Below, piece after piece: positions 1 to 29,791 of a stretch of DNA of 45,234 nucleotides (the stretch's first letter is position 1; every line of letters begins with the position of its first letter). The position numbers were made by a program, and so were the translations under genes. The notes beneath the pieces were generated by a model that saw nothing but the letters and a program-made list of their open reading frames with translations, had not been told where the DNA came from and ran no database searches. Source of the stretch: a virus (lineage: Duplodnaviria; Heunggongvirae; Uroviricota; Caudoviricetes); the IMG/VR virus record IMGVR_UViG_2579779009_000005. One strand, 5' to 3'.

Positions 1-1998
1 TTATGCCTGGACCCAGGCTCCCCACACCCCACTCGTTTTCAACTGCGTCCACACTCTTCCCGGAGTTGGGGCTGCCTCATAAAATCGAATAATCCCTATC
101 GATGCGTCGCTTGCCTTTTCTTTGATATCAAAGATACCAGCGGTTATGCCGCTAGGCTTACCTGTTGACGCGGGGAAGGCATAATATGAAACTCCTCTCC
201 TTGCACCGTGGATATCCCCAGTAGTCCAGTCGTAGATATCACCTGCATCCTTTTTATTTTGCTCAGCAGTCATCCGTGACTGGCTCCAGAACTCTATCCC
301 AGAGCAGTAGGCCGCTCCAGATGACACGTTAACGGTAATTGTGTGCCACCCGCGAGAGTTTACGCGGAGGTAGTTATTGATCTCAGTCTTAGTGGTTGGC
401 TTAAGATAGCCGATTGGCTGGTTTACCGTATTGAAACCAAAGTTGATAACTATTAACGGTGTTTCATTAGCGGCTGCGAGGTCGCGGTTCATATCAAGTG
501 GCTTAGGGGGTCTAATATTGTCACCATCAAGATATACGTTCACTACAGAACCTGATGGTACATAGAGCACCGGCCACGCTATCAATTCATCTGTCTCGGT
601 GAAGAATGACCAGGTAACCCTTTCTCCTGCGGTTAGGTTCAGGCATCTGTTGCCAACAATGTTATCCCCATAAGCAAATGCGGCCTCTGCTGAGTTCGCA
701 TAGTATTTGTAGATATCACTTGCTAACCGTGACGAGTTAATTGCAACCGGGTCATATAGCTTTCTGATGGTTAGCTGAGAGCCGTCAGATACAACTGTCT
801 TACGCATGACCAATTCACCGATGAAGGCCGCGGCAATCTTGAATCCCCATGCCGAAGAAGCATTTAGAACCAAGTGAACAGGATCACCAAACTGAGTACC
901 TACGTTGATAGACTGAGTGGCAGATGCATAAATGTTGTCTCGATAACCCGCCATTAGCTCGACGCTATCAATAACAGGCACCGAATATTTGTCTGCTAGA
1001 TATTTCAGCGCGTTACCCATCTGCTGGGCATCGACACGCTTTACTGTCGGGAATGGATCGCTTGGGCTCGATGTGGTGTAAGTCTCGTAAGCCTTATCGA
1101 AGCGCAGAGGCAGCGGGGTCAACAACACCACTGGGTGACCCCATGTCAGCTCTCTGACTATCAGTTTTTCAATCCAGCCCAAGTACTGCGCAATGTTCCC
1201 GGTAAATGGATACCCGTACTGCGACGAAGCGTCATTTGTGCCGAAGTTAATCAGAGAAACATCACCCGAGTGGTTAGTGGTATATGTATCGAAGGCGTCT
1301 TTCGCACTGAATCCGGACGTAGCTCGGCTGATGGTGGTTACTTTCCCTGTCCCATATGCGCTATTCATCGCGACCCTGAACTGGGCCTGCACGTTTTCGT
1401 TCTCTCGTACAGAGTTGGAGTCGCCATACCAAGTGAGGGTGAAAAGAGTCCCATCTCTTAATTTTTTCAGCTTTTCTGCCAAGAGATTGCGCTGAATGTA
1501 GCTGAACCAGTCGGTATGCACTAATGCAGCACCTACGGTATTGTCTGGATATGTCTCGCTAGGGGAGAATCCTGACAGCCCCGCTCCAGTAGTTTTTGCC
1601 AGGTCTTTACGCAGCACGTCAGTAACATCAACAGGCTGCCACTTTCCTTCGCCAGTACCACCTGACGATTCTGGAGTTGACCCTGCTGGCACAGTTTTCG
1701 GCAATGTGCTGAGATCGTCCCACCGATACCATACACCCGTCGTTTCATCCTGTAGAAGGTCACCAGCTGCCGTAACGATAGCTCCGTCCTGGAATGTTCC
1801 TGCCAGATTCCAACCAAGATTGTAGATCTGCTGAAGAACAAGCTCCTTCAGCCCCTCAATGGTGTAATGAGATACCCCGAGACGATCAATGTACTGAAGA
1901 GCCATTGAGGTAACGAATTGGTCAATCTTCCCTGCGTTGAATTTAAGGTCGCTAGGGGACTCGCTCGGTACGGGCTGATTGGTAGGTGTAGTAGCCAT
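1..1998 (-). CDS. Tail fiber/tailspike with SGNH (GDSL) esterase domain
   Basis: SGNH blocks GDSNS, FGTNDA and DPVH are present in the translation. Start revised to MATTPTN (ATG at 1998) because the tabulated start lies inside a terminator hairpin. Last gene of the tail module. Confidence 0.6.
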   Translation of the reverse strand: MATTPTNQPVPSESPSDLKFNAGKIDQFVTSMALQYIDRLGVSHYTIEGLKELVLQQIYNLGWNLAGTFQDGAIVTAAGDLLQDETTGVWYRWDDLSTLPKTVPAGSTPESSGGTGEGKWQPVDVTDVLRKDLAKTTGAGLSGFSPSETYPDNTVGAALVHTDWFSYIQRNLLAEKLKKLRDGTLFTLTWYGDSNSVRENENVQAQFRVAMNSAYGTGKVTTISRATSGFSAKDAFDTYTTNHSGDVSLINFGTNDASSQYGYPFTGNIAQYLGWIEKLIVRELTWGHPVVLLTPLPLRFDKAYETYTTSSPSDPFPTVKRVDAQQMGNALKYLADKYSVPVIDSVELMAGYRDNIYASATQSINVGTQFGDPVHLVLNASSAWGFKIAAAFIGELVMRKTVVSDGSQLTIRKLYDPVAINSSRLASDIYKYYANSAEAAFAYGDNIVGNRCLNLTAGERVTWSFFTETDELIAWPVLYVPSGSVVNVYLDGDNIRPPKPLDMNRDLAAANETPLIVINFGFNTVNQPIGYLKPTTKTEINNYLRVNSRGWHTITVNVSSGAAYCSGIEFWSQSRMTAEQNKKDAGDIYDWTTGDIHGARRGVSYYAFPASTGKPSGITAGIFDIKEKASDASIGIIRFYEAAPTPGRVWTQLKTSGVWGAWVQA

Positions 1999-2054: not shown

Positions 2055-4532
2055 TTATGGGTAGATGGCGTCGCTATATTCCGCGACGGTCAGAGATACC
2101 GTGTTATCTGTGTTCGGCTTGATGCTGTTGACCGTCCATAGCTGGCTGTTCAGCTCCTCCACCGTTGCTATGAGGTAGCGCGACGGGAGCTGTACATTGT
2201 CTCCGTTCCAGATATTGAGTTGAATGTCGGGTATTGCCGCGGTGAATCCGTACTTAGTGTCGGCGCGTGTCGTCGCCGGATAGCGCAGAGTCGGGTTGCC
2301 CAGGCTGTCGGTCACCAGGACATACATCGAGCCGGTAAACGCGATCGGCTCGCTTGTATCAAAGTTATTCCCGGCGCGGCCGGTGATGTATCCCTGCTGC
2401 TGGTTACTGTCGTAGATATCCGCAATCTGCACGACGCTACCGACCTGCATGATCCCGTCCTCAAATACTTTGGCGTTCATCTTCACCCGGGAGTAGATAA
2501 GGCGCTTCGTTTCGCGCAGTGCGCGTTCCCGCGCCTGATACTCGTTACGAAATCCGACTATCTCGATTATGTTCGGGTTCTCCGCTTCCTGCTCGACGAT
2601 AGCGCCGTTCAGCACGCGGTAGTTGATGTACGTCTTGTTGTTCGTGGTTGGATGAACGTAGGACACCTGCACGCCGTCGTAGCCGCCAGGAAGAGTGGCC
2701 TCGTACGTCATTTTGTACTCGTCCGTCTTCATGTTGGCCCGGTTGAATACGGCAGCCGGGTAATCAACCTTCTGATCGCGAGTAAAAGTCAGCACGCCGT
2801 CATCCCAGTACGCAATGACTGACGCTGCATTGCAGATCGCCTGCACGCGGTCGCCGAGAGAATCGTTCTCGTCGTCAAACGTGTAGTCGAAGTAACCCAG
2901 GCGCTCATCCGGCAGACTTTCGGCAATCGAGTACAGTCCGTACAGGTCAATGCTACTTACCGGCTGCTCGCCCATAATCAGCCAGGTATGCGCCACTGCA
3001 TCAGCGAACGAGCGCGAGGCCCTAAGGGTGTAATCCACCGCCTGCGTCGTCAGGTTGTAACTGATGGTTTGGCGCGTCACCAGGGCGTTGTATTTGCGAT
3101 CACGACTGCCCAGCGCGTTCTCTGTCGCTCTTACCTTCACGCGCACCAGCGTATCGGTTGGATGCACGACGTTGGTTCTGACGTTGACCGAGTGGATCTC
3201 CTCAACCTTCAGGATAGAGGCATCACTCGAGTTATCTGTGCGCTGGAAGTTAATAGCGTACTTGCCGAAACCGCCGGTCGGCGTCAGCTTGTCAGTGCGA
3301 TAAAACACTTCGCTGGATGATTTGTGCGGCGTCCCCTGGTGATACGTGAACGTCTGCTGAGTACCCGGCACCTGGTTGTAGTCATCGTCAATTTTCCAGA
3401 TTGTGACCTTCCAGTCAGCGGACTTTTTGCCGCCCAGCTGCACCTGAGTGTGCAGCCATAACTGGGCAGATTCGACCGGCGAGAAGAACGGGCCTACCAC
3501 TAGCGCTTCGTTATCGTTAAGGATGAACTTCGTCGTGTTAATAGTCGCCGTTGCCGGCACGTCAGGAGGGCCAATTAGATCCCCCATCGTGAATGTGTAC
3601 CACCGGACCGGGTTAACCACCGCGCCGTCGTTTGTTTCGACAGCCGATATCAGCGTGCCGGAGAAATCGACATCCTGCGTTACGTTGCCGGTTGGCGTGC
3701 TGTAGGTGACGTTAATCGTAAAAGTAACGGCGTGCGGCAGGACCAGGCCCATGAAGTAATCAAACTCAGCCTGCTTGATAATTTTTACCGCAATCTGCCC
3801 GCCGGAGTATGTGCCGCTAACAACCGTGGTGGCCGTAGCAGTCTCGATCGGGAAATTGTCCGATTCGTTTTGCCCGGGCACCTCCTGGCCATCCACGTCG
3901 TCGAAACCGTACCCTTCGTTGATGGTGGGTATCACTTCCCCCGGCTGGTAAAACTGGAACTCTGCACCGGCCATACTTCCAAGGCTGGACTCTGAATAAC
4001 GCACAGACTCGTAATCATATTTGCCGATCCCGATGCACATCCACTCAGTAACGTACTTCAGGCCGCCATCCGTGTCGCTCTGGCGCACGTATTCGAACAG
4101 TGATTCCTGAATCAGGTCCGGGAACGAACGGATTTGCCCGTAGATGTCCGGCTTTGCTTTGTAGACGCGCGCCGTATTCGTCTGACCGGTCAGGCTATTG
4201 TTTGGCGAGTCAATCGTGTTGCCGCCTGTGTTGGCGATCGCCGGCTTGGGAGCAAGGAACGAGAAGACCGCGCCGACAACTTTGAAAATAGGGCTGAGAA
4301 TGTCGCCAATAATGCCCTTTGGCTGGTCGAAAATCTGGATGGTGTCCAGTTCGCATAGCTCAAACGCCAGCTCATCATCTTCGCCCAGCTTTACGCCGTT
4401 GCGGACGATCAGCAGATCGCGGTGAAAGTTACCATCATTGGCCGCCAGCCAATCATAAAAAAGGGTGCCGTTTGGCACCCTGCAACGCAGCTTAGGCGTT
4501 CCTGGAAAATTTGATATCTCAACCAGCGCCAT
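2055..4532 (-). CDS. Tail tip / host specificity protein (J-like)
   Basis: 825-aa ORF downstream of the minor tail and NlpC/P60 genes, in the position of lambda J. Named from size and synteny only. Confidence 0.6.
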   Translation of the reverse strand: MALVEISNFPGTPKLRCRVPNGTLFYDWLAANDGNFHRDLLIVRNGVKLGEDDELAFELCELDTIQIFDQPKGIIGDILSPIFKVVGAVFSFLAPKPAIANTGGNTIDSPNNSLTGQTNTARVYKAKPDIYGQIRSFPDLIQESLFEYVRQSDTDGGLKYVTEWMCIGIGKYDYESVRYSESSLGSMAGAEFQFYQPGEVIPTINEGYGFDDVDGQEVPGQNESDNFPIETATATTVVSGTYSGGQIAVKIIKQAEFDYFMGLVLPHAVTFTINVTYSTPTGNVTQDVDFSGTLISAVETNDGAVVNPVRWYTFTMGDLIGPPDVPATATINTTKFILNDNEALVVGPFFSPVESAQLWLHTQVQLGGKKSADWKVTIWKIDDDYNQVPGTQQTFTYHQGTPHKSSSEVFYRTDKLTPTGGFGKYAINFQRTDNSSDASILKVEEIHSVNVRTNVVHPTDTLVRVKVRATENALGSRDRKYNALVTRQTISYNLTTQAVDYTLRASRSFADAVAHTWLIMGEQPVSSIDLYGLYSIAESLPDERLGYFDYTFDDENDSLGDRVQAICNAASVIAYWDDGVLTFTRDQKVDYPAAVFNRANMKTDEYKMTYEATLPGGYDGVQVSYVHPTTNNKTYINYRVLNGAIVEQEAENPNIIEIVGFRNEYQARERALRETKRLIYSRVKMNAKVFEDGIMQVGSVVQIADIYDSNQQQGYITGRAGNNFDTSEPIAFTGSMYVLVTDSLGNPTLRYPATTRADTKYGFTAAIPDIQLNIWNGDNVQLPSRYLIATVEELNSQLWTVNSIKPNTDNTVSLTVAEYSDAIYP

Positions 4533-4935
4533 ATTCGAAAAACTCCACTTTGGTGAATGCTCGCCGAATGACCAGCAACGAATCTTCTTTCACGCTGCCG
4601 TTTTCCCCGCGCGCATGAATGGCTTTTCGGTTCAGCACCAAGCCAACGTGTGCCGGTTGCGCGCCGCGGTACCCGACGAATATCCCTCCCTCGACTGGCT
4701 TGTCGACCGGGCGCCAGAAAACGACATCACCCTGGTAGCAGGTGAAGAAGTCCTCACCGGCTTCGTAGTCCGGCGTCTGGTGCAGTTCAATGCCGAGAAC
4801 GTGCCGGTAATACAGCACCACCAGGCCCCAACAATCGACCTCCTCGAAAGAGCAGGCCCGGTTAGACCACGGCAAGCCGATCACCTTCCAAACAAAATCA
4901 GAGGTACTGCAGGCCGGTATATTCCGTTGGGTCAT
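4519..4935 (-). CDS. Tail assembly protein, NlpC/P60-like (K-like)
   Basis: 138 aa with Cys/His content typical of NlpC/P60 and the position of lambda K. Overlaps the upstream gene, so the start is uncertain. Confidence 0.5.
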   Translation of the reverse strand: MTQRNIPACSTSDFVWKVIGLPWSNRACSFEEVDCWGLVVLYYRHVLGIELHQTPDYEAGEDFFTCYQGDVVFWRPVDKPVEGGIFVGYRGAQPAHVGLVLNRKAIHARGENGSVKEDSLLVIRRAFTKVEFFEYGAG

Positions 4936-5368
4936 AGAGCCTTCCGATGTTGTTGTTCAGCGGGTTGGTGACGGACAGGGTTACTGACGCGGAGTCAGCG
5001 TCGATGTCCACTGTCTTGACGTATAACTGCCAGGACTTAATCGGCACAGACACGTCCCCGCTATCGAAGATCTGCCTTGTGGCCGTGATGGCCGTCAGCC
5101 GGGCCGCCCCCTTCCACTGCTTCATCAGAGCTTTGATGTCCGACGACAGCCGCCCTAACTTCACCGTCGCGTCTATCACCGGAGTACCGCTCTGCTGACT
5201 CTCTTCGATTTCAAAGCGCGCTGGCGTGTACGTCTGCCCGCCGAGCGTCTTCGGGAAGAACTGCTTATCGACCAGGCGGACGTAGCCAAAGGATGGATGG
5301 TAGAACGTAATGGTGTCGTACAGTCCGCGCGTCGGCCGTTGCTGCTTATATTGACGGAATGATGGCAT
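4898..5368 (-). CDS. Minor tail protein
   Basis: Start revised to MPSFRQ (ATG overlapping the upstream stop in an ATGA junction). Lies between tape measure and the K-like gene. Confidence 0.5.
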   Translation of the reverse strand: MPSFRQYKQQRPTRGLYDTITFYHPSFGYVRLVDKQFFPKTLGGQTYTPARFEIEESQQSGTPVIDATVKLGRLSSDIKALMKQWKGAARLTAITATRQIFDSGDVSVPIKSWQLYVKTVDIDADSASVTLSVTNPLNNNIGRLYDPTEYTGLQYL

Positions 5369-5865: not shown

Positions 5866-8795
5866 CAGCCCTGCCCCCTTGGCGTACGTTTAACGTTCAT
5901 GTTGCTGGTAATGGCGTTGCTTATTGGCCCGCCGTTATTCAAGTCTGCAACGACGACATCAACAGTCAGCCCACCATTTCCGTCTGTTCCAGCCTGAGCA
6001 TCTACAGAGGATGACGTGTAGTTCTGAATGTTGATAACAACCCCACAACCGCCCGCCCCTTGCATATCCTTGTTGCTGATCACCTTGCCATTGTCGCCGG
6101 GTATCATGTACTGCTTACCGGTGCTGGCCTGATAAATCTCAGGCATCCCGCCCTCACCTACCTGATACATTCCGCCCGCCGATACCGGGCCGCCGTTCTT
6201 ACGCTTACCGGCCAGCGCCATGACTCCCGCCATAGCCCCGACACCAATTGCCACTGCCGCGCCCCATGATGCGATCGACGACATGAGCGCCGCCGGTGTC
6301 CATGCTGCCGTGGTCGTTGCCGCCGCCGCTGTACTGGCTGCGGTCTGCGTGGTAATACCGGCAACCTGTGCTGCTGTAGTGGCAGTGATTGCGGCCTGCT
6401 GAGTTGTGGCCCCCATAATCGCGGACTTAGCCCAGTCGACGCCCATCTGCACAAAGGAGTTAATCAGCTGGTTAACTACTGAGTTAGCGAGTGAACGAAC
6501 AGCCTCCTCACCACTTTGAGTGCCAGTGATGATCCCCGCAAAGGCACTCGATGCGTTGTTGCCAAGGGCATCAAGCGACGCCGCAAGCATCTGGTTGGCT
6601 GCGCTTTGCTGTGAGAACAAAGTCCACTGGGCAGCAAGACGCTGCTGCTCGTATTCGGTATCGGCGGCGTTACGCAGTGCAAGCGCGTTCTCGTGAGTAA
6701 TCAGACCTTCCTGCTCATAAGCCTGAATCAGAGCAAGTTTTCGGGCATTCTCGTTTGCCAGTTGCTGAACAGGATCAACTCCGCCAGCGGCATCTTGCTG
6801 CGGTGTAACCACCTGCTGCGCGCGAATTTTGGCAAGGTTGGCCTGGTGAGTAGCTTCGAGCCTTTCAGAGGTCTCGTTGTACTGCTCCTGGCTGATTTTC
6901 TTGGCTGACAGGGCGGTATTCAGCGCTTCAACATCCTGCCTGTAGCTGGTGTTTTCACGCGCTTCCGGCAATAGCTTCTCTGCTGCGGCCTGCGCTTTAA
7001 TGGCGTTGGCCGTATCCCATTTTGCCGCCGCGTACTGCCCCGCCAGCGCGAGCTGTTCTTTTGTGGCTCCTTTTCCGAGAGACTGCTGCGCATTAAGGAT
7101 CGCCTGCTCGCGACTCAGCCTATTTGTTGAGTCAGCGGCAAGCTCCGATTGCTGCTTGAGATTAGCCAGCTTCTGAGCGATAGACTCCGCCTGAGACGCT
7201 CCTTTCTTCTGTTCGGATTTGAGGACCTTCTGTGCTTCTGTATTTTTGTAAGTGGCAGCAGCGTCATCCTCCATCTGCTTGGCATGCGGATCATCCTTCG
7301 CAAATCCAGCATCTTCGGCAGCGTATTGAGCCTGCAACCGCGCGCGGGCCTCCCCCTGGAGCTTAGACAGTGCCAGATTGCGTTCTGACTGCTTGATCAG
7401 GTTCTTCTGCCCGGCGGTAAGGTTATCTGTTTCCTGCTTCAGAGCAGCAACATTACCTTTAGCAATGACGGCTTCACGCGATAACTCAACAAGTTTCCCT
7501 ACGAATGCCGTGAGTGCGGTCTGCCCTTTTTCGGTTGAGCTCTGAGTGTTCTGCAGTTCAGTAGCAAGTCGCTGCAGGGCTTCCGGAGATGGATTTTTTG
7601 CAATATCGGAAAGCTGCTTGCTGAACTCGAAAGCTTTTTGCTCGGATATCCCGAACTTGTCGGCTACAGCACCAACAGTATTGCCAATGCTGTTTGCAGT
7701 CGCCTGGAATGCCTGCCCGGCACCGTATGCCTGCTTCATCGCCTCGGAATAGTTATCCGTGGTGATTTCCAGAGTAGTCAGACGATCGTTAAAGCCATCG
7801 ACTGACGCATAGCCTCCGGAAAATGCTGAAAGCGCCTTGTCCCCGAAGGAAAGTAGCGAGCTCGAAGCATCGCTGATCGCTTTAGGTATCTTATTGATAG
7901 CCTCGTTGTATTCCAGCAGCGCCTGGTTACGCATCAGTGTTGCTACTTCGGTATTCGTTTTCGCTAGCAATGCGTACTTATCAGACAGTGCGGCCACGCC
8001 ATTTTGGGAAATGGTAATGACCTTATCCATCGCCTCGGCTGCGTCTTTCAGCGCATCCATCGCGTTCTTGCCGCCATTAAGAGAAGTGATGAGCACACCG
8101 GCCAGAACAGAGCTCAGAGCGATAACAGAACCAATTACCGCACCACCCGGCCCGAATGCACCGGCAAGTTGAGATCCTTGCTGTGCAAACGCTACCAGCG
8201 CGGACTGGCCACCCTGAACCTGAATGATAAAGTCCTGAACCTGGTACCCGGCCTGTTGCATGCTGTTTTTCCAGGCCCCGGTTCCTTTCGCTCCGGTTTC
8301 CACACCTGTTTTCATGTCATACAGTCGACCGGTCAGCTCGCCGATCTTCTGCTTCTCTTCATCGGTCGCTTTTGAGCCGGCACGCAACTGTGCCGCTAGG
8401 ACTGCTGCGCTACGCGCGCCATTCTCCTGCGCCTCGTCCAGCACTGCGAGTTGGTTACCAAGCGCCTCGATGATGGATTCGGCGCGATTGAACTCACTGT
8501 TAGCGCCACCGGTACCGCTGCGGGCCTCTTCCATTACGCGGGCGATCCCGCTCACATTGGTGTTAAGTTTGCGGAGTTGGTTATCCATCGAGTTGGCATA
8601 ACCAGCCAGTTCAGTAAACGCGGATCCGGTTTGAGATGCGCTCTGATCGAGGTTATCCATTCCCTTGCCGGACTGCTGGGCCGCAGCATCCAGTTTATCC
8701 AGAGCATCAATGGCCTGTTTCCCGCCCTGCAACAGCGGCTCAACGTCGGCGCTGATTTCATAAACGATGCTACCGGCGTTCTTCTCACCTGCCAT
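5865..8795 (-). CDS. Tail tape measure protein
   Basis: 976 aa, Ala/Gln/Gly-rich helical protein with a C-terminal hydrophobic/Gly-rich segment. Start revised to MAGEKN (ATG at 8795, RBS ggaga) because the upstream in-frame ATG lies inside a terminator hairpin. Confidence 0.8.
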   Translation of the reverse strand: MAGEKNAGSIVYEISADVEPLLQGGKQAIDALDKLDAAAQQSGKGMDNLDQSASQTGSAFTELAGYANSMDNQLRKLNTNVSGIARVMEEARSGTGGANSEFNRAESIIEALGNQLAVLDEAQENGARSAAVLAAQLRAGSKATDEEKQKIGELTGRLYDMKTGVETGAKGTGAWKNSMQQAGYQVQDFIIQVQGGQSALVAFAQQGSQLAGAFGPGGAVIGSVIALSSVLAGVLITSLNGGKNAMDALKDAAEAMDKVITISQNGVAALSDKYALLAKTNTEVATLMRNQALLEYNEAINKIPKAISDASSSLLSFGDKALSAFSGGYASVDGFNDRLTTLEITTDNYSEAMKQAYGAGQAFQATANSIGNTVGAVADKFGISEQKAFEFSKQLSDIAKNPSPEALQRLATELQNTQSSTEKGQTALTAFVGKLVELSREAVIAKGNVAALKQETDNLTAGQKNLIKQSERNLALSKLQGEARARLQAQYAAEDAGFAKDDPHAKQMEDDAAATYKNTEAQKVLKSEQKKGASQAESIAQKLANLKQQSELAADSTNRLSREQAILNAQQSLGKGATKEQLALAGQYAAAKWDTANAIKAQAAAEKLLPEARENTSYRQDVEALNTALSAKKISQEQYNETSERLEATHQANLAKIRAQQVVTPQQDAAGGVDPVQQLANENARKLALIQAYEQEGLITHENALALRNAADTEYEQQRLAAQWTLFSQQSAANQMLAASLDALGNNASSAFAGIITGTQSGEEAVRSLANSVVNQLINSFVQMGVDWAKSAIMGATTQQAAITATTAAQVAGITTQTAASTAAAATTTAAWTPAALMSSIASWGAAVAIGVGAMAGVMALAGKRKNGGPVSAGGMYQVGEGGMPEIYQASTGKQYMIPGDNGKVISNKDMQGAGGCGVVINIQNYTSSSVDAQAGTDGNGGLTVDVVVADLNNGGPISNAITSNMNVKRTPRGQG

Positions 8796-8810
8796 GACAT
8801 TCTCCGGGCA

Positions 8811-8833
8811 TAAAAAAACCCGCCGCAGCGGGT
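8811..8833 (-). terminator. Intrinsic terminator after the two-gene moron
   Basis: Stem acccgc-ugcg-gcgggu followed by seven U on the minus transcript, between the stop at 8850 and the tape measure start. Confidence 0.6.
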
Positions 8834-8849
8834 TCGTCATTTAAATGAT

Positions 8850-9206
8850 TTAGGCTTCTCTCTTACCGAATGCATATCCCAAAGCCAGTGTTAGTATGGG
8901 CGTGAATATGGACCATACATCTTTTAAAGCGCTTACGATGTCAAACTTATCTGGTGAGTCAAGATCAAATGAAAAATGAAAAAAAACAAGCAGTAAACAA
9001 ACGCTGAAAATCCCACCTAAGTAGAAGCAATATTTCAAAGTTGTCCAGATAAATGAATCCCTTGCATGCTCACCAGTTCCAATCTCATTCGCAATTTTCC
9101 CCGCAACACTAACACCAGTTAGTCCACCTTGAGGTACTGAAGGTGTTGTAATTTCATTGTTTTGGGTTTGTAGTTTTGGCTCAGATGCAATGAAAGATTC
9201 GGTCAT
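8850..9206 (-). CDS. Small membrane protein (moron gene 2)
   Basis: 118 aa with two predicted TM helices (LKYCFYLGGIFSVCLLLVFFHF and SIFTPILTLALGYAFG). AT-rich. Start overlaps the stop of the upstream ORF. Confidence 0.5.
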   Translation of the reverse strand: MTESFIASEPKLQTQNNEITTPSVPQGGLTGVSVAGKIANEIGTGEHARDSFIWTTLKYCFYLGGIFSVCLLLVFFHFSFDLDSPDKFDIVSALKDVWSIFTPILTLALGYAFGKREA

Positions 9207-9586
9207 TACTCCCCCTCATAAAAAGAGAAGTTGACAATAACTGAAATCTGGTCCGTTCCGATTTCTCTAATGTTGGAATGCCATGCCATGAATAATTTTT
9301 TCCCATTAGATTTCTTGCCAATTTCGGCCGGAATAACAAGACCTACAGCTTCATTCATAATAGGGACAATTACCCTGTGGACGAAAACAACCTCTCCATT
9401 TTTAACGAATGCATCAACCCCCTGCTTATTCGACTCACTTTCAGGCAGAATTTTTGTCGTAATTAATATAGTTAATCCATCGTAAACCAATTTTAAAGGT
9501 TCAGAAGGAACTAATGGATTAATAATGCTATGAAAGCTACCTGACTGTAATAGAGTTTTTCCATCTGCGCTGGCTTTTACTAACAT
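9206..9586 (-). CDS. Hypothetical soluble protein (moron gene 1)
   Basis: 126-aa ORF in an AT-rich insertion between the tail chaperone and tape measure genes. RBS gaagg upstream. Confidence 0.5.
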   Translation of the reverse strand: MLVKASADGKTLLQSGSFHSIINPLVPSEPLKLVYDGLTILITTKILPESESNKQGVDAFVKNGEVVFVHRVIVPIMNEAVGLVIPAEIGKKSNGKKLFMAWHSNIREIGTDQISVIVNFSFYEGE

Positions 9587-9633
9587 TTTAACCTTCTAAT
9601 CAGCTATATGATATTTATGATGATATTACCATC

Positions 9634-10326
9634 CTAAATAGCAGGCTTGCTACTCCTCTGATTGGTATTGGCCCTTCTGGCCATTTGTTTAGCTAAGTAA
9701 GCCTCCGCAACACTGTCGTACTCTTCGCGCGTGAAGCCTTTCTGGTCGGGATATTTTGCCGCCAGCAGCATCTGAAATTCGGTCATTGTTAACTGAGAGG
9801 CTTCGGCACGGTTCATGCCGAAGTGGCTACGTGCAGCACTAATGTAGTCGAAGGCTTTAAACTCCGTCGTGCGCTCGCCTGTTTCGTGGCGCTGCAACTG
9901 GCGGACTTTGGCTTTACCTACGACGCCGTGCTGCATGAGGTGCTGCGCCAGCACGATGATATCGTTCTTCGGTATCTGACCCGGGCGGTATACGACACAA
10001 TGTCGCCACCCTTTCCATTCCCCAATCATTGGCGTCAGGTCATCATCACAGCACGCTTGGAGCACAAGCATGCACGTTGATAACAGCTTCTCGGCTGCAC
10101 GGTTGAATGATGGAGATAGCCATTCAGGAAAGCGCCCCAGCATTCCAGCGCACACCTCAATCAGCTGAGCGACGTCATTCCCGTGGATGGTGGCATACAC
10201 CTGCACAATCTCTTCAGGAGCGCCGATCCGCGTCATAGCCTCGAATGATGGCCTGAGCAGGTAGTCTTTCCCACCTGCGCGGCTGTCGCTGATAGAGAGT
10301 TCGCCAATATCGGTTAAAGCGGTCAT
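9634..10326 (-). CDS. Tail assembly chaperone (putative)
   Basis: 230-aa ORF immediately downstream of the major tail protein gene. Assigned from position only. Confidence 0.45.
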   Translation of the reverse strand: MTALTDIGELSISDSRAGGKDYLLRPSFEAMTRIGAPEEIVQVYATIHGNDVAQLIEVCAGMLGRFPEWLSPSFNRAAEKLLSTCMLVLQACCDDDLTPMIGEWKGWRHCVVYRPGQIPKNDIIVLAQHLMQHGVVGKAKVRQLQRHETGERTTEFKAFDYISAARSHFGMNRAEASQLTMTEFQMLLAAKYPDQKGFTREEYDSVAEAYLAKQMARRANTNQRSSKPAI

Positions 10327-16085: not shown

Positions 16086-16108
16086 ATAAAAAACCCGCCG
16101 GAGCGGGT
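16086..16108 (-). terminator. Intrinsic terminator after HExxH moron
   Basis: Stem acccgcuccggcgggu followed by uuuuuauu on the minus transcript, between the stop at 16119 and the protease start at 16056. Confidence 0.6.
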
Positions 16109-16118
16109 GAGTTATTAA

Positions 16119-16973
16119 TTAACTTCTTACATACTGACATAGCACGTCAAATACATAATCGATATAATTCTTACCTTCTGACTCGTCAAATTTAGGAGCG
16201 GTACCTTTTTTATTGTAATAGAAAAGTGAAAGTAGTGGAAAAGCAATTGCTACACTTTTTTCATCATCACACTGTGTACTTTTAAACATGCTTTCAATTC
16301 TAGCAGTCGCATGTGGGTGCGAACGTTCCCCGCCATTATCAGTACTTTCTTGGTCTAGAATTATTACTAATGCTAACAGTGACCCACTAAATCTTTTGAT
16401 GAAATGGTTCGGAAGTGTATTTTCATCAAAAATGAAATTTGTTGCAAAACTGTCTGCATCAACTTCCTCTTGACGACACTGAGAATACTCACCATCCGTA
16501 TGCTCTAATTTGATATGCCCTATCTCATGTAGCATGATCCATGCCATGGCACATAGAAACAACTCATCACCAACATCAGTGCTTTCACCATCAAAGTAAC
16601 TCAGATGCAATAAAAAGTCTTTATCATTTAACGATGAGGATATATTAGCCTTGCATAATTCAAGTAACTTCCTTTCACGATCAATCTCATCTTCAGTAAT
16701 TCCAACCCCTTTGGAATTAGCTATCTTATATTTATTATAAAGTGACCATGACAGACAAGAAACCACCCAAACGTAATAAAGCGATGACAACGGTAAATAA
16801 ATTTCTTTTTTTGATGTACTTACAGAAAAGGAAAAGGAACGTGAATCTTCAAAGCACACATCGAATTTTGGATGTACATCACCCCTTGATGAATTTATGT
16901 TATAAACACATTTTTTTAAACTTGTCTCTAATCGCGACAAGGGAAAGTCTATAGGCATGCTTCTGAGTGTCAT
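16119..16973 (-). CDS. HExxH zinc metallopeptidase, Lit-like (peptidase U49?) moron
   Basis: HEIGH motif with a downstream EH, near residue 150 of ~284 aa. Strongly AT-rich. Own terminator. Inserted between the head morphogenesis and protease genes. Tabulated start is TTG; the ATG at 16973 is preferred. Confidence 0.45.
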   Translation of the reverse strand: MTLRSMPIDFPLSRLETSLKKCVYNINSSRGDVHPKFDVCFEDSRSFSFSVSTSKKEIYLPLSSLYYVWVVSCLSWSLYNKYKIANSKGVGITEDEIDRERKLLELCKANISSSLNDKDFLLHLSYFDGESTDVGDELFLCAMAWIMLHEIGHIKLEHTDGEYSQCRQEEVDADSFATNFIFDENTLPNHFIKRFSGSLLALVIILDQESTDNGGERSHPHATARIESMFKSTQCDDEKSVAIAFPLLSLFYYNKKGTAPKFDESEGKNYIDYVFDVLCQYVRS

Positions 16974-21979: not shown

Positions 21980-22318
21980 ATGGGTATTGAAGAGAATTTA
22001 CTCGAGACACTGTTAAAGAATGATGTTTTCCATGAAGAGGATGGAAAAGTATCAGGCATTGCCAAGCGTGCTATCGATAAAGGATATGCAAATTTATCAC
22101 CGGCACAAAAGCGAGTATTACAACCGTTTATGAGTCATGGTTGTGAGGGTTATACCGATCCTGGTGGACATCACAACGGTTGCGGAAAAGTTCTGGAAGG
22201 TGCAGAACTTGATGAAGCTTATGAACACACATGGGAGCATGGCGGCTTACTCTGCGAGGACTGTCGCGAACAAAGTGGTTATGACGATTACCGTCGTGAG
22301 AAATTTATGAAAGACTAA
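21980..22318 (+). CDS. Cys/His-rich hypothetical protein (opposite-strand moron)
   Basis: Strong RBS aaggagg. Motifs HGCEGY...HHNGCG...CEDC suggest a zinc-binding fold. AT-rich upstream region. Own terminator. Confidence 0.5.
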   Translation: MGIEENLLETLLKNDVFHEEDGKVSGIAKRAIDKGYANLSPAQKRVLQPFMSHGCEGYTDPGGHHNGCGKVLEGAELDEAYEHTWEHGGLLCEDCREQSGYDDYRREKFMKD

Positions 22319-22324
22319 GATTTC

Positions 22325-22348
22325 GGCCTATCTCACGATAGGCCTTTT
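22325..22348 (+). terminator. Intrinsic terminator of the plus-strand moron
   Basis: Stem ggcctatc-tcac-gataggcc followed by tttt on the plus strand. Confidence 0.5.
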
Positions 22349-22373: not shown

Positions 22374-22583
22374 TTATTCCTCTAATGACTGCTCGGTCTG
22401 CTCTGCCTGCACTGGCGTGAACTGCACTCGCTTCACATCAGCAGGAGCGAAATACAGCCACTCTCCCGCCTCAGTCGCCAGCGGCACAAAGCCATTAACC
22501 AGCTCAGGCTGACGTCGTGACATCTTGCCAGTGAAGGTTTCGCCTGTTTGGGTGGTTAGCTTGATTTGGTAGATGTCGGACAT
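22374..22583 (-). CDS. Small hypothetical protein (69 aa)
   Basis: ORF with RBS aagagg, located between the 135-aa moron and the plus-strand moron. Confidence 0.4.
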   Translation of the reverse strand: MSDIYQIKLTTQTGETFTGKMSRRQPELVNGFVPLATEAGEWLYFAPADVKRVQFTPVQAEQTEQSLEE

Positions 22584-22676: not shown

Positions 22677-22699
22677 ATAAAAAACCGCCCGGAGGCGGT
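22677..22699 (-). terminator. Intrinsic terminator after 135-aa moron
   Basis: Stem accgccuccgggcggu followed by uuuuuauu on the minus transcript; it overlaps the stop codon. Confidence 0.55.
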
Positions 22700-23106
22700 C
22701 AATCTGAAAGACCAAATTTCTTTTTGGTGTAGGATTTTAGAAGCTCTACACCTACATCCTTCAAGACCGATAATGGTTGATCGCTTATAGTCTTGAGTTT
22801 CTCAAAAACATCCTTTTGTTGAAGAGTTTCGGCGAACTCTTGGCCGGATGATGTAAGCCTTATGTTTGCTGGCCAGTCTTTAATTCCATTAATACCAATT
22901 ACAAGTCCTAGTTTCTTAGGATCCCCAATTTCAAGAAAGTGGTTACTTATGTAACCCCTCTCAACCAATTGGTAGTAATGAAACAACCCCTTTGGGCTGC
23001 TTATTTCGTATCCAGCCTCTTTAAGATCAGTAGCAGCTATCAATGGGTCATCAGCCTTAATAAAGACCCCCAACATTCCCTTCAAATAGTCCAGATCAGT
23101 TTGCAT
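22699..23106 (-). CDS. Hypothetical protein, AT-rich moron
   Basis: 135 aa. RBS ggagg. Candidate promoter in the 48-bp gap after Rz. Terminator directly downstream. Confidence 0.5.
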   Translation of the reverse strand: MQTDLDYLKGMLGVFIKADDPLIAATDLKEAGYEISSPKGLFHYYQLVERGYISNHFLEIGDPKKLGLVIGINGIKDWPANIRLTSSGQEFAETLQQKDVFEKLKTISDQPLSVLKDVGVELLKSYTKKKFGLSD

Positions 23107-23154
23107 ATACTACCTCCACCCTCATTAATGGAGATAATATTACCCTTCACTTCA

Positions 23155-23616
23155 CTAATTTGAACACTGTCCTTTTATGTAGTCCTGCAGATAGCCGACC
23201 TGCTTCGTCACTGTGGTGATTCGCTCTCTGAGGGTGAAATAATCCCGTTCAGCGGAGTCAGTAAGTCGGGGGCCGGAAGCATCGCCCATGCCGCCGGTGC
23301 CGGTCTCTCCGTTCGCTGTGCATCTGGCGTTGAGCTGCAACCGACGCTTGCCAGTAGCAACATCGCGCTCAAGCTGATCGATAGTGGCTTTGGCATCAGC
23401 CAGTTCTCCGGTGTATTTTGCATCCAGCGCAGCGACATCACGCTGGCGGGTTTGCATGTCTTTGATGGTGGCGTTCGCCAGGCTGAGTTGCTCGGTGGCC
23501 TTATCGCGCTGGTCTTTATAGGTGATGGCGTTGTCGCGATAGTGGTTAATCGCCCAACCCATTGCGCTGATTGTCACGATGATTACCGCACAGGTAATTC
23601 CTGTGATTCTACTCAT
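23155..23616 (-). CDS. Rz: Spanin, inner membrane subunit (Rz)
   Basis: Clear similarity to remembered lambda Rz ([40 protein letters not shown]). Start revised to MSRITGI (ATGA overlap with the endolysin stop). Confidence 0.85.
23208..23396 (-). CDS. Rz1: Spanin, outer membrane lipoprotein subunit (Rz1)
   Basis: Embedded in Rz in the +1 frame. The C-terminus [26 protein letters not shown] matches the lambda Rz1 pattern. Start codon choice is uncertain. Confidence 0.7.
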
Positions 23617-24143
23617 TTCACACCATCCAGGCAGAGCGCCTCTTCTTTCCCAGCACGAGTAACCAGACCAGGAAGAATCCTGCCGCCACCCCATACCCAG
23701 CGCGGGAACTGGTGGCATGCCGCCGTAATATCTCCACTTCTGAGAAGAGAGAACATGGTGGAAATGCGCATGTTCCCGCAGCCAGCACGAAACGTTACCG
23801 ATACAGCCGCTGAGAAAGTATCGTCAGATAGCTTTCTGCCATTCCCGTAACGGTTAACACAGGATTCAGCATCAAGGATGTTTCGCTCCCACTCGGCTGC
23901 GATCTGCTGGTCAGACTTAACGGTGCCGAGCTTTACGCCATGCGTATTACCCATACCGTCAGTCAGCACACCTGCCGGGCACACATACGGATCACGCCGG
24001 CAAGACTCAGCGTTACCGATTAGCTCCAGCCCGCGCTCGTTAGTCCTGACATGGCCCGCATTCATCACAATGGCGATGATCGTTCCTACGGAGCAGACAA
24101 TGCCCGCCGCTCCGCTTTTCTTACTCAGTTTCAACTGTGCCAC
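23613..24143 (-). CDS. SAR endolysin (T4-lysozyme-like, GH24)
   Basis: N-terminal weakly hydrophobic Gly/Ala-rich signal-anchor-release segment ([16 protein letters not shown]). The C-terminus resembles remembered phage 21 lysozyme (RWVWGGG...GLVTRA). Confidence 0.7.
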
Positions 24144-24635: not shown

Positions 24636-24670
24636 GCAAATAAAAAAGCCCAAGGCGTTAACCTCGGGCT
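24636..24670 (-). terminator. Intrinsic terminator (first of tandem pair)
   Basis: Stem agcccgagg-uuaacg-ccuugggcu followed by uuuuuuauuug on the minus transcript. Confidence 0.6.
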
Positions 24671-24724
24671 TGAATTCTTTGTGTCGACAATCAAAGCTAT
24701 GGCGACGATATCAGATTTACATGA

Positions 24725-24753
24725 AATATATGCGTTTCAGTTCGGTTTTGCAA
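24725..24753 (-). promoter_or_regulatory. Candidate late promoter (pR'-like)
   Basis: TTGCAA, 17-nt spacer, TATATT on the minus strand, overlapping the 3' end of the Q-like gene and about 50-80 nt upstream of the tandem terminators. Confidence 0.45.
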
Positions 24754-25426
24754 GACTTGCATCTAAATTTGTCGCCTTTTGTTGTGAACGTGATCGCGTT
24801 ACTGAGATAAGCGTACCGCTATCGAGTCGCTTAAAGCTATTACGCATTGCCAGCCAGTGAGGCAAATACGTTTCCGTCCATGTGGATTTCGCTACGCCCG
24901 CCAGTTCCGCCAGCACCTGGTACTCGTATGTCTCACGGCCTGCCAGTTCTGCTTTGACATCCTGCGCCGCCAGCCAGATAAGTTTCTTCAGGCGTTCCAT
25001 CGTCTTGCCAGCCACTTTCTTCACACCAAGCTGTTCCCGGAACTCTGCCCACGCCCACTGGGTGATTGCCACCTGGTATTCGAAGCGGACGTTCTCGCTA
25101 TAGTTCCACAGCAGCCACGCTTTCTGGTGTTCTTCCAGCGACAGGACGGCGCGGCGCCATGACGCGGTACCAAACTCCACAGGGCTGACCAGCGCGATAG
25201 ACGAGCCCTTAGCGCGTGACTGGCTGCCGCTCATCGGCGGACCATCCGGGTTGACCATGCGCTGCTTATCCTTGTCGAATACCTTTTTCCGGCCCCGGCT
25301 GCGCGCCGTCGCGGTGAATTGCGCATTCTCGGCGAAAGCTACCAGCTGCCCTTTCGTCGCCCCGCTCAGATCTGCGGTCGCCACAATGAGCTGCTGACGT
25401 ACGTATTCCAGTTGCTGACTGTTCAT
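24737..25426 (-). CDS. Late gene antiterminator, Q-like (putative)
   Basis: 229-aa ORF at the end of the nin region, directly upstream of the promoter / tandem-terminator / lysis-cassette arrangement. Family assigned from position, not recognised from sequence. Confidence 0.45.
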   Translation of the reverse strand: MNSQQLEYVRQQLIVATADLSGATKGQLVAFAENAQFTATARSRGRKKVFDKDKQRMVNPDGPPMSGSQSRAKGSSIALVSPVEFGTASWRRAVLSLEEHQKAWLLWNYSENVRFEYQVAITQWAWAEFREQLGVKKVAGKTMERLKKLIWLAAQDVKAELAGRETYEYQVLAELAGVAKSTWTETYLPHWLAMRNSFKRLDSGTLISVTRSRSQQKATNLDASLAKPN

Positions 25427-27145: not shown

Positions 27146-27318
27146 ACGGCCTCCTTATTGGAAACCGCAGAATGTAGAAAATCGCAGGTGCATTTCTGCA
27201 TCTGTGACAAGGTGAGGAGTTCAGATTGTGGTCGCATTTAAGTCCCCTTAAATGCGCAGAAGTCACCGGAGTTGTTCAGGCTCCGATGACATGATTATGG
27301 CTGGATGATTCTTGAAAA

Positions 27319-27969
27319 TCAAACGGCGGTATCCATGCTTTGAAGAATGGCGTGTAATGAATTTGCGGTGGAATTCTGCAGTTTTGTATCGGTTGCGGGG
27401 ATGTGTTCAAAACTATCGATATAAAATCTTACACCGTCCTGTCTCACCCAATAGACTAGCCAGTCTCCAGAAATTACATCATTACCCTTAAACGGTTTCC
27501 AAGATAGCTCAGTAGCAATACGAGAAATTTGCTCTTTTGCATTTTCTTCTCCCATCTGTTCAATAAGATCCTGGAATCTTATGATAAGTTCTTCAAACGA
27601 AGCATCTTTAGCACTAACTCCATTTTGCTCCAAAAACATCTGAATAGCATTGCGATTGCCCCGGCCTTGTAAAGCCGGCTCGGATGGATTTTTCTCAGGC
27701 GCTTCTCCTTTTTGCCTGTACGCATTGAAAGCTCGAGTGAAATTATCCTCTGAAACATGTATATGATGAAATCCGGCCAACGCACCCTTTAATTCACGCT
27801 CTTGATGACGCATTGCTAAAGTTGATGGGGCAACCTTCATTCCCTCAAGAAGCCGAATGGACTCCAACACATTTCGGGCGAAAAATCCCCTTCCATTTAA
27901 TGCGTCTTCGATTATTTTCTGAGATAGATGACTCGAGACTCTATCCTTAAAATGTTCATCAATAATCAC
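27319..27969 (-). CDS. Hypothetical protein, AT-rich (nin-region cargo)
   Basis: 216 aa. Clearly more AT-rich than its flanks. Last gene of a three-gene coupled set. No family recognised. Confidence 0.5.
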
Positions 27970-28214
27970 TTCCCTTCCTCCTGTTTCAGGTAAACCGGAT
28001 CGCTAACTTTCGGTAAAGTTATCGACTTCTCGCGATAAAACTTCAGGCGCTCAAGGAAGTAATCACGCAAATGCTCTGGCTGCTCGCGCATCACCACCTC
28101 AGCGATAAGCGGCATATTCAGGCGCTCTTTGTACGCCACTCCGGAGGCAGCCAGGTCAACGTTAACCTTATCGCGATCTTCCTGCGGCTTTGCTGCAATG
28201 TTCCAGTCAGACAT
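27966..28214 (-). CDS. Hypothetical protein (82 aa)
   Basis: Start/stop overlaps with both neighbours. Confidence 0.45.
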
Positions 28215-28558: not shown

Positions 28559-28941
28559 AGTCCGTTTATCATAGAATAAAAGGCCCCTAGGGGCCTTGAT
28601 TTATATCTATGGTAACTCTCGTCAACTTGTTCGTCACTTCACCTGCTGCGGAGCTGCTGCGAGCATCGTACGATAAGCAGATGCATGGTAAATGCCATGT
28701 GACACCCAGGCGGCATTAAGCATATCTGGCGTTGGCTCCTTCTGAACCATCACCCAACCATCCGGAATCACCGGAGAGTTGCTATCTTGCGTGGCACCCT
28801 GAAGCATGGCGGCGCGAGCGGTATGAGCAAAGTATTCTTATAGTCGCGGCGATGACGTGCCATGACCACCCAATTTATCTGGACAAATCACTGGAGCTAT
28901 AGGATACATAATTGCATTTTAGCTAAAGGCGTTAACTGATT

Positions 28942-29379
28942 ATGTGGCTTACTGTTTTTACTACAATTATCACTGGTGTGACCGTCTACATCATAGGTCA
29001 AATAATAACCAAATGCGCATTGGAAACGTACATCTCGTTCAAGGAGCATCTGGGAAGAATTTCGTCACTCTTACTTCGCGAGCAAAGTAAAATAATGAAT
29101 TTTAAGCCAAATAGCGAATTAATACATGAGCTAAAGGCGTCATCAGGTCTTTTAATTGCAAAATCGAAAGCAATCCCATTCTATAATTTTTTCTCAAAAA
29201 TAGGCCTTACTCCAGTTTACAGCGATGTGATTGAAGCGTCACACCAACTAAATTTAATAGCTTCCATCTTAGAAGGCGGCAACAATTCATATTCCAGTAA
29301 TCCATCTCCTTCAGGCCAATCCATCTACTCTTCTTTGAAAATCATTGGAGAAAAGCTTGATATAATTGTTTCGTACTAA
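28942..29379 (+). CDS. Membrane-anchored hypothetical protein (opposite-strand moron)
   Basis: 145 aa with an N-terminal TM helix (LTVFTTIITGVTVYIIGQII). Very AT-rich. Opposite orientation to the surrounding operon. Confidence 0.5.
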   Translation: MWLTVFTTIITGVTVYIIGQIITKCALETYISFKEHLGRISSLLLREQSKIMNFKPNSELIHELKASSGLLIAKSKAIPFYNFFSKIGLTPVYSDVIEASHQLNLIASILEGGNNSYSSNPSPSGQSIYSSLKIIGEKLDIIVSY

Positions 29380-29531
29380 TTTATTGCACCCGTACTGTTT
29401 TCTGTGCCCGTCAGCACGGGCTTCTCATGATCATAAAGTGCAGCGATTCCGCACGCGTTACAAGATATCCAATTGAGGTTATCGTCGTCATAATCAAATT
29501 CAGCCTTTCCATCGCAGTATGGGCAAGGCAT
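29376..29531 (-). CDS. Small zinc-ribbon protein (Lar-like?), not in ORF track
   Basis: 51-aa ORF MPCPYCDGKAEF...CNACG with two CxxC pairs. ATG overlaps the stop of the upstream ORF. Confidence 0.4.
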   Translation of the reverse strand: MPCPYCDGKAEFDYDDDNLNWISCNACGIAALYDHEKPVLTGTENSTGAIN

Positions 29532-29791
29532 CAGGTCGTTTTCACATCCACTGCTGGCGATAAAAGAGCGTTACTCAGCAGTACATAACCCGGTATCCAG
29601 TTACCAAGCTCAGCGACATGTGTAACGGTGACTTTGGTGAATTCACCGGTAAAGGCTTCTTCGTTCGGGTCCCACTCGCACAGATCGAGATTGTCGCCTG
29701 CCTGGTAATCTCGGTCATTCCATCTGAGCTCTGCACGCTTCTGTCCTGCGCGAACGGCTGAATAGTACTCAGGCCAAATCTTCAGATGGTG
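29531..29791 (-). pseudogene. ASCH/PUA-like (DUF3850-like) ORF lacking a canonical start codon
   Basis: 86-codon open frame HHLKIWPEYYSAVRAGQKRAELRWNDRDYQAGDNLDLCEWD... The codon preceding it is TAA and there is no in-frame ATG/GTG/TTG at the N-terminus. Confidence 0.35.

Follow-up and report, generated by a model that had tools for sequence, protein, structure and literature searches.

A candidate hairpin-gated cargo gene after the spanin genes of a lambdoid prophage in Escherichia coli M10

The DNA analyzed here is a stretch of 45,234 nucleotides from a tailed virus (Caudoviricetes; IMG/VR record IMGVR_UViG_2579779009_000005), and we refer to the whole of it as the window. We found that the window is identical to positions 945030-990263 of Escherichia coli M10 (NZ_CP010200.1), a prophage that adjoins dsdC. 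Our subject is the gene directly downstream of the spanin genes Rz/Rz1, here called X, which is annotated in E. coli M10 as a hypothetical protein (WP_032141948.1). An earlier note on this DNA, made from the sequence alone, had described X as a self-contained AT-rich moron with a promoter and a terminator of its own and had suggested that it is cargo expressed in the lysogen. As that note had it, an open reading frame (ORF) of 135 aa follows Rz/Rz1, a strong ribosome-binding site (RBS), GGAGG, precedes it, and the gap between it and Rz, whose TAG stop codon occupies 23157..23155, is 48 bp long. The upstream neighbors had also been named correctly, Rz by its Phage_lysis match and Rz1 as the lipoprotein embedded in it (Table 1).

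Holin, endolysin, and Rz genes, all on the minus strand 5' of X, form the standard lambdoid start of the late genes. The rest of the late-operon frame is also present in the window: the Q antiterminator, a pR'-like late promoter, an IsrJ-like RNA, and tR'. To judge by these matches, the pR'-like site and the IsrJ-like RNA define a Q-dependent late operon that embeds the X cassette. IsrJ is reported to be a highly expressed noncoding RNA of Gifsy-1 (PMC7067206), and the IsrJ-like RNA of the window corresponds to the short constitutive pR'-tR' RNA of the prophage.

Table 1. Positions of the X cassette, the late-operon frame, and other cargo-like genes in the window.
Feature	Position	Strand	Remarks
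Gene X ORF	22699..23106	minus	ATG start, 135 aa; PHROG 585, divergent DUF2513/YjcQ relative, predicted soluble winged helix
Shine-Dalgarno (SD) sequence GGAGG of X	23117..23113	minus	6 nt 5' of ATG; read off the sequence
17-bp RNA hairpin	23103..23143	minus	5' arm 23143..23127, loop 23126..23121, 3' arm 23120..23103
Candidate -10, TAATAT	23142..23137	minus	4/6 match; inside 5' arm of hairpin
Alternative -10, TATTAT	23139..23134	minus	5/6 match
Best -35-like hexamer, TTCAAA	23164..23159	minus	4/6 match; 16-nt spacer to TAATAT; last Rz codons
Intrinsic terminator of X	22677..22700	minus	GACCGCCtccgGGCGGTT + T-run; stem 22700..22683, T-run 22682..22677
Nested stem-loop	22647..22676	minus	CCATCAC-[ATGGG cagA CTCAT]-CGTAATGG, directly past terminator T-run
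Rz (i-spanin)	23155..23621	minus	Upstream neighbor and left recombination boundary; Pfam Phage_lysis 2.8e-44, identity profile
Rz1, embedded in Rz	about 23208..23396	minus	Lipoprotein; translation has lipobox
Q antiterminator	24737..25426	minus	Pfam Phage_antiter_Q 2.8e-83
pR'-like late promoter	24753..24725	minus	TTGCAA-17-TATATT; terminators then at 24671 and 24563
IsrJ-like short terminated RNA	24721..24645	minus	Rfam isrJ 60.8 bits (gathering score 37); between pR' and first terminator
Lit-family exclusion gene	16119..16973	minus	Inserted between head genes; terminator 16108..16093
69-aa gene	22374..22583	minus	PHROG 6581
112-aa gene	21980..22318	plus	PHROG 12178; Cys/His-rich
Terminator-like hairpin of 112-aa gene	22324..22343		
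Early-left operon segment	39403..41587	plus	DGQHR-domain protein (DndB-like), then MT-A70 methyltransferase
DNA polymerase III theta homologue	27966..28214	minus	

X stands apart from its surroundings in base composition. Its GC content is 0.397, and its GC content at third codon positions (GC3) is 0.382, compared with a GC content of 0.544 for Rz, 0.552 for the endolysin gene, 0.538 for the next gene, and 0.525 for the whole window. X falls within the lowest 3.6% of GC contents among all 408-nt windows. The claim that its GC content is far below that of the lysis genes was borne out by these values (39.7% versus 54-55%).

We found X to be rare and variable in its occurrence. It is carried by 2 of 5,426 E. 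coli genomes, and a megablast search with the locus against 50,697 phage records gave no match. Among 17 prophages that share the metallopeptidase-DUF2280-TerL module, 15 lack X and have other small genes after Rz instead; these relatives without X have 80-92% nucleotide identity in the DUF2280-TerL module. Because so many prophages with the same packaging module do without it, X is dispensable. Where X does occur, its position is regular. At more than 60 loci, X is encoded on the strand of the late genes, past the lysis cassette and ahead of the packaging genes, mostly directly after Rz. Even a relative with 28% identity is found at the same position, between a DUF2514 spanin gene and TerL/P22 portal genes. 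An exception is phage Chlobot, in which X adjoins xis/int. The packaging genes near X are of the Terminase_2, ParB_N/GpA, DUF1441/GpA, P22-type, and DUF2280/PBSX-type kinds. That X is horizontally acquired, dispensable cargo is, as far as genome comparison goes, well supported.

This distribution bears on the idea that X is a packaging accessory or a small-terminase-like DNA-recognition protein. An N-terminal winged helix followed by a helical C terminus, in about 135 aa, would suit such a role, and in several loci X is located immediately 5' of TerS or TerL. However, the same DUF2280-TerL module occurs without X, X is found with at least 5 unrelated terminase types, and in the window X is three genes and a terminator away from TerS. 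In addition, X is of foreign GC content and has no Pfam terminase match. We observed no co-inheritance of X with a given TerL module and rejected the packaging role, which is very improbable, on the ground of dispensability.

Comparison with the related prophages L065 and L038 located the boundaries of exchange. Identity is 88-96% in the 3' end of Rz and 18-28% in the gap; it is 55-68% over the first ~100 codons of X, and for the last ~35 codons together with the terminator and the sequence beyond it is 76-92%. The same division is seen among X alleles, of which the N-terminal ~100 codons are variable and the last ~35 codons are conserved. Because this identity profile is mosaic, we conclude that winged-helix alleles are swapped between the Rz stop codon and the conserved 3' end of X.

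The terminator of X has 7 pairs (about -13 kcal/mol) and overlaps the TGA stop codon, just as the earlier note had read it. Several strong terminators are present within the late operon, and strong internal terminators are sensible only for transcripts that are not Q modified. A moron is defined by its own promoter and terminator, a deviant GC content, and expression from the repressed prophage (PMC3594210). By sequence comparison, X has three of the marks of a moron: presence in some relatives and absence from others, a deviant composition, and a terminator.

The nested stem-loop that follows the terminator begins ~23 nt past the X stop codon in the window. It is a member of a recurrent hairpin family in lysis-to-terminase intergenic gaps, of which we found 31 distinct versions with energies up to -23 kcal/mol; other loci that have it are L002, L004, L017, L023, L026, L036, L041, L060, L065, L066, and L067. 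The outer arms are conserved (CATyAC ... G(A)TAATG(G/C)), and the 3' arm is frequently (TGT)GATAAT, which is -10-like. The sequence of the inner GC-rich hairpin is wholly different among loci, with pairing retained. Possible roles of the element are those of a promoter/operator, an RNase III site, or a module-boundary recombination sequence. Rfam holds no family for it, and the sole match there was isrJ at pR'. Beyond the stem-loop, the 69-aa gene of PHROG 6581 often follows X; it is also present without X (L067 and L096), and since it occurs independently of X we dropped it as a co-transferred partner.

A feature of the cassette that the earlier note did not mention is an RNA hairpin over its RBS. 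The 5' arm is GUAAUAUUAUCUCCAUU, the loop is AAUGAG, and the 3' arm holds GGAGG and the UG of the AUG start codon. The hairpin has a predicted energy of -17.6 kcal/mol (z = -4.26), and none of 200 shuffled sequences was as stable. The SD sequence is paired with a probability of 1.00, compared with 0.43 when the upstream part is shuffled. In 5 close relatives, 84.7% of the pair cells are kept, versus 36-63% for slid partners, and the changes in these relatives are G-U to A-U plus two double changes. Rfam has no family match for this leader hairpin. Thus, in a read-through RNA the SD sequence and AUG are predicted to be sequestered by a stable helix. A predicted RNA that starts at ~23130 (about 7 nt past the -10) and is without the 5' arm has an energy of -6.4 kcal/mol (z = 0) and no special fold. 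The hairpin may in this way restrict translation of X to the cassette's own short transcript. The arrangement of a -10-like hexamer directly 5' of the anti-SD sequence is also seen in other leaders, both in the L076 type (TAAAAT-ATCCTCC) and in the L058 type (TATTCT-AGACCTCC).

Our preferred reading is that the X cassette is an acquired moron in the spanin-to-packaging slot of the lambdoid prophage of E. coli M10, expressed in the lysogen and gated by the hairpin; we put its probability at roughly 0.45. Under this reading, late mRNA that reads in from Rz would have the X SD sequence and AUG locked in the 17-bp hairpin and would be translated poorly. A weak sigma-70 promoter with its -10 (TAATAT or TATTAT) in the 5' arm would start an mRNA at ~23130, in which the RBS is free. 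Transcripts independent of Q, about 450 nt long, would end at the terminator across the stop codon, and X protein would be produced at a low level from the repressed prophage. The variable winged-helix face of X would most likely serve to bind nucleic acid or else a partner protein. That X is a factor of benefit to the lysogen, either an exclusion/defense factor or a regulator, is our guess.

Several observations weigh against this reading, and many of them concern the promoter. The earlier note had placed a promoter, GTTCAA-17-TAATAT, in the 48-bp gap. TAATAT does lie in the gap. GTTCAA (23165..23160) is within the final Rz codons and agrees with TTGACA in 2 of 6 letters; the best reading, displaced by 1 nt, is TTCAAA-16-TAATAT, which matches the consensus at 8 of 12 positions. 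A consensus promoter scanner did not report the site in the window sequence. The promoter had a position-weight score of 9.6 bits, where dinucleotide shuffles averaged 6.3 (p = 0.053, marginal), and the -10 of the window compared with shuffles of the 60-nt leader gave p = 0.06. The -35 is unconserved in relatives: in close relatives, an insertion of 11-12 nt is present between the end of Rz and the -10 box and breaks the -35 spacing. Because of this insertion, the "-35" is nothing more than conserved Rz coding sequence, and we rejected GTTCAA as a -35. On the window sequence alone, the promoter is no better than chance.

Comparison across the family was more favorable and supports a promoter to a moderate degree. 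We collapsed 88 loci to about 26 families of upstream sequences and scored hexamers that end 22-38 nt before the start codon. The best -10 score had a mean of 5.55 bits, versus 1.93 in controls (Mann-Whitney, 2.6e-9), the controls being 167 neighboring genes with gaps of at least 45 nt, which are less AT-rich than the X leaders. When leaders were compared with their own shuffles, the median p across the family was 0.16 and Fisher's combined p was 1e-4, in families that are related rather than independent. Of 52 TAnnnT hexamers, 28 are located 22-32 nt before the start codon, where ~10 would be expected if they were evenly spread. In the distant lineage L091, TGaTATAAT, a perfect extended -10, lies 29 nt upstream. 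We take these comparisons as moderate support for a -10 element that is real, if weak, and keeps a fixed spacing to the start codon. Pairing in the RNA, instead of promoter function, could be why the "TTATCTCC" box is conserved.

Further points against the preferred reading come from the hairpin, the terminator, and the orientation of X. Across all families, the probability that the SD sequence is paired was 0.64 in the long RNA and 0.54 in the short RNA (Wilcoxon, p = 0.011), a modest effect, and in some lineages the SD sequence is open. As a property of the whole family, gating was set aside: the effect is present but modest, and it is absent from some lineages. In other E. coli strains, a copy of the terminator and stem-loop with 96.7% identity follows a 99-aa gene unrelated to X. 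Because they also follow unrelated cargo, the terminator and stem-loop belong to the slot as much as to X. Lastly, X is co-oriented with the late operon in all loci, which also fits dependence on late transcription.

These observations are what would be expected if X were a promoter-less late passenger, transcribed solely from pR' after Q antitermination, with the hairpin damping translation, the terminator belonging to the slot backbone, and X acting in the lytic cycle, e.g., on host or phage DNA. For such a passenger, the weak promoter missed by the scanner, the strict co-orientation with late genes, a gap after Rz of a mere 48 bp, and a terminator common to other cargo all raise no difficulty, and recombination boundaries at the Rz stop codon and inside the 3' end of X put the terminator outside the swapped unit. 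However, a hairpin of -17.6 kcal/mol on the SD sequence and AUG is odd if the read-through transcript is the sole mRNA. Also against the late passenger are the -10-like hexamers, which in different lineages cluster at one distance from the start codon and include a perfect extended -10, and the equal layout of the AT-rich Lit gene of the same prophage. We regard the late passenger as the main rival, a serious but doubtful possibility.

We infer that X is independent of late transcription because of the terminators in a Q-dependent operon, the -10 boxes at a fixed distance, the hairpin that would silence read-through RNA, and the parallel of the Lit gene. A hairpin that sequesters the RBS would also make sense of a promoter at exactly that position. 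The cargo interpretation of the earlier note is therefore kept in part: foreign GC content, presence in so few genomes, exchange in the slot, and the terminator favor dispensable acquired cargo, whereas the promoter that it named is weak and its -35 is artefactual.

The closest known parallel to the proposed gating is found in phage T4. For T4 genes e, soc, 49, and I-TevI, the read-through RNA cannot be translated, and translatable RNA comes from a promoter located inside the hairpin (PMC3014915). As in T4 gene e, the SD sequence and AUG of X are sequestered in a read-through hairpin, and a promoter element, in X a candidate, lies in the DNA of the 5' strand. The inner promoter of gene e differs in that it is a late promoter with mapped transcript starts, whereas for X we propose a putative sigma-70 promoter that would be used in the lysogen. 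The temporal logic would also be reversed, with the late read-through RNA being the one silenced in X. To our knowledge, the logic of T4 gene e has so far not been described for lambdoid cargo.

We then considered the protein. X had been assigned to an unknown family, which holds insofar as X belongs to a PHROG of unknown function (phrog_585, 3.8e-26); it does not hold insofar as X can be placed, in PHROG 585 and as a divergent DUF2513 member. X itself scores 13.5 bits against Pfam DUF2513 (PF10711; E = 0.096), under the gathering threshold of 29.6 bits. A homologue search of 5.8 billion proteins gave 34 full-length homologues with 47-99% identity, all from Enterobacterales, and 29 of these 34 give merely sub-threshold DUF2513 matches. 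Carriers of homologues include Pantoea ananatis, Serratia, Klebsiella (the L058-type allele), and E. coli strains with P0025. With the A1 profile, 313 relatives were recovered from 1.84 billion representatives, and almost all are 130-146 aa long. Members found by profile score higher against DUF2513 (P0085, 48.4 bits; P0100, 36.2 bits), and 43 of 68 sampled relatives match it, the best at 9.2e-15. Because of the matches among sampled relatives, X is, at the level of sequence profiles, a divergent branch of the DUF2513 superfamily. DUF2513 and YjcQ (PF09639) proteins share with X the same fold, a similar length, and a conserved R-L-T..G..F after the wing; X differs from them in a strongly conserved extra C-terminal helix, VFEKLK..PLSVIKDVGVELLKSY.KKKFGL. 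A literature search on DUF2513 found nothing relevant.

The structure prediction that the earlier note had proposed gave a confident model. In the AlphaFold2 monomer (predicted local distance difference test score, 91.8), residues 1-85 form a canonical winged helix with an enlarged wing, and residues 86-130 form three helices. Two residues of the recognition helix, F42 and H43, are nearly invariant, as are R83, L84, and G88 at the exit of the wing, a pattern compatible in the model with nucleic acid binding. Some features of the protein count against the function that we propose: X is acidic (pI 5.7) with a recognition helix poor in basic residues, so that DNA binding is not assured, and X had no match in PADLOC-DB at E <= 1 and none in NCBIfam. 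Sequence searches of the PDB with two profiles found no significant solved relative. X was not a member of the MarR/PadR regulators by sequence family, nor did its fold match theirs closely.

The fold also bears on whether X assists in lysis, for example as an antiholin, a spanin regulator, or a timing factor. Its place as the first gene after Rz/Rz1 in most loci would suit that role. However, X is modeled as a soluble, well-folded winged helix and has neither a transmembrane segment nor a lipobox, Rz and endolysin genes of the same types are found where X is absent, and in phage Chlobot X adjoins xis/int. Homology to a lysis accessory protein, which the earlier note had named as evidence that would tell against cargo, was searched for in Pfam and PHROGs, and no match to a lysis family was found. 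A lysis-accessory role is hardly credible, and we rejected it because of the fold of X, its distribution, and its lack of both a membrane segment and a lipobox.

Some relatives of X are fused to other domains. In P0109, a complete X module (winged helix plus C-terminal helices) is the N terminus of a protein with a CAP12/Pycsar-type TIR domain (7.7e-21), and in P0169 an X-like module is fused to a weak DUF4062 match. Fusions are rare, with about 3 among the 150 best representatives. These architectures hint that immune effectors can use the X module for sensing or assembly. In the L094 genome island (coordinates 937..1341 and 4001..5137), a stand-alone DUF2513-like gene adjoins a pair of HTH_31/Peptidase_M78 (ImmA-like) genes, and the 378-aa P0169 is encoded ~2.7 kb away. 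In a giant protein, P0046 (2457 aa), 22 separate stretches match the helix-turn-helix core of the X profile (positions 16-50); it looks like either a repeat protein of the helix-turn-helix motif or a compositional artefact.

The fusions raise the question of whether X is an anti-defense decoy, i.e., a stand-alone sensor/oligomerization module of TIR-type abortive-infection effectors that poisons or titrates a host immune protein. The complete module in P0109 and the weaker case of P0169 are what suggest this, and a variable winged helix with a conserved C-terminal helix would fit an arms race. The rarity of the fusions makes this less attractive, as do the end of the late operon, which is poorly suited to an early-acting anti-defense gene, and the failure of X to match known anti-defense families. 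We consider the decoy alone to be quite improbable. A broader version is unlikely too, if less so. In it, X is a self-insulating moron, translated solely from the short transcript of a promoter active in the lysogen and silent on Q-dependent late mRNA; it founds a family of prophage winged-helix factors whose variable sensing face is the N-terminal module of TIR effectors, and it acts as an exclusion factor or decoy in phage-host immunity.

We compared X with the classical morons of lambdoid phages, HK97 gene 15 and lambda lom/bor (Juhala/Hendrix, PMC3594210). Like these, X is an extra gene between late genes, with a differing GC content and its own intrinsic terminator after the gene, and related phages lack it; its orientation with the late operon is shared by HK97 gene 15 and lom. 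Unlike them, X has only a weak candidate promoter and encodes a cytoplasmic winged helix instead of a membrane or exclusion protein of a known type. Its alleles are also exchanged from the 3' end of Rz to the 3' end of X, not as a whole promoter-gene-terminator unit.

A second comparison is available within the prophage itself. The Lit-family exclusion gene forms the AT-richest island in the window (minimum GC content, 0.316), with an AT-rich upstream gap containing TATAAT and a strong terminator after the gene. Lit is a protease that cleaves EF-Tu. Going by homology and layout, this gene is a second same-strand moron of the prophage, with a known defense role. It resembles X in being an AT-rich insert within the late operon and on its strand, with a -10-like box upstream and a GC-rich terminator of the type ACCCGCtccgGCGGGT(T)n. 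It differs from X in that its leader has no obvious RBS hairpin and in that its defense mechanism is known, whereas X is without a characterized relative.

Other genes of the window resemble cargo. The 112-aa gene of PHROG 12178 (GC3, 0.327) is antisense to the late operon, with an AT-rich upstream region and a terminator-like hairpin. Because of its antisense orientation it needs its own promoter, and it is probably, by these features, another moron. In the early-left operon, the DGQHR-domain protein and the MT-A70 methyltransferase may, on their domains, be a DNA-modification or anti-restriction pair. The window also has a homologue of DNA polymerase III theta, and a YdaT-domain/helix-turn-helix pair adjoins the LexA-family repressor. 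Further low-GC segments (8751..9869, 27191..27829, and 28761..29589; GC content below 0.42 over 408-nt windows) may, from composition, be additional acquired cargo.

As a category X is ordinary, a moron at a known mosaic hot spot, and if our model fails it is one more small hypothetical gene at such a site. The candidate promoter embedded in a hairpin and the TIR-fused relatives raise it, on sequence evidence, somewhat above a plain hypothetical gene. If the model is true, a -10 in the 5' arm of an SD-occluding hairpin, followed by a terminator, would be a mark of lysogen cargo in late operons that can be read from the sequence. The lysis-terminase slot would swap its cargo at fixed boundaries, namely, the 3' end of Rz, the conserved 3' end of the gene, and the shared terminator/stem-loop. 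The PHROG 585/DUF2513 superfamily, which is widespread in Enterobacterales prophages, would then be a candidate lysogenic-conversion or immunity factor.

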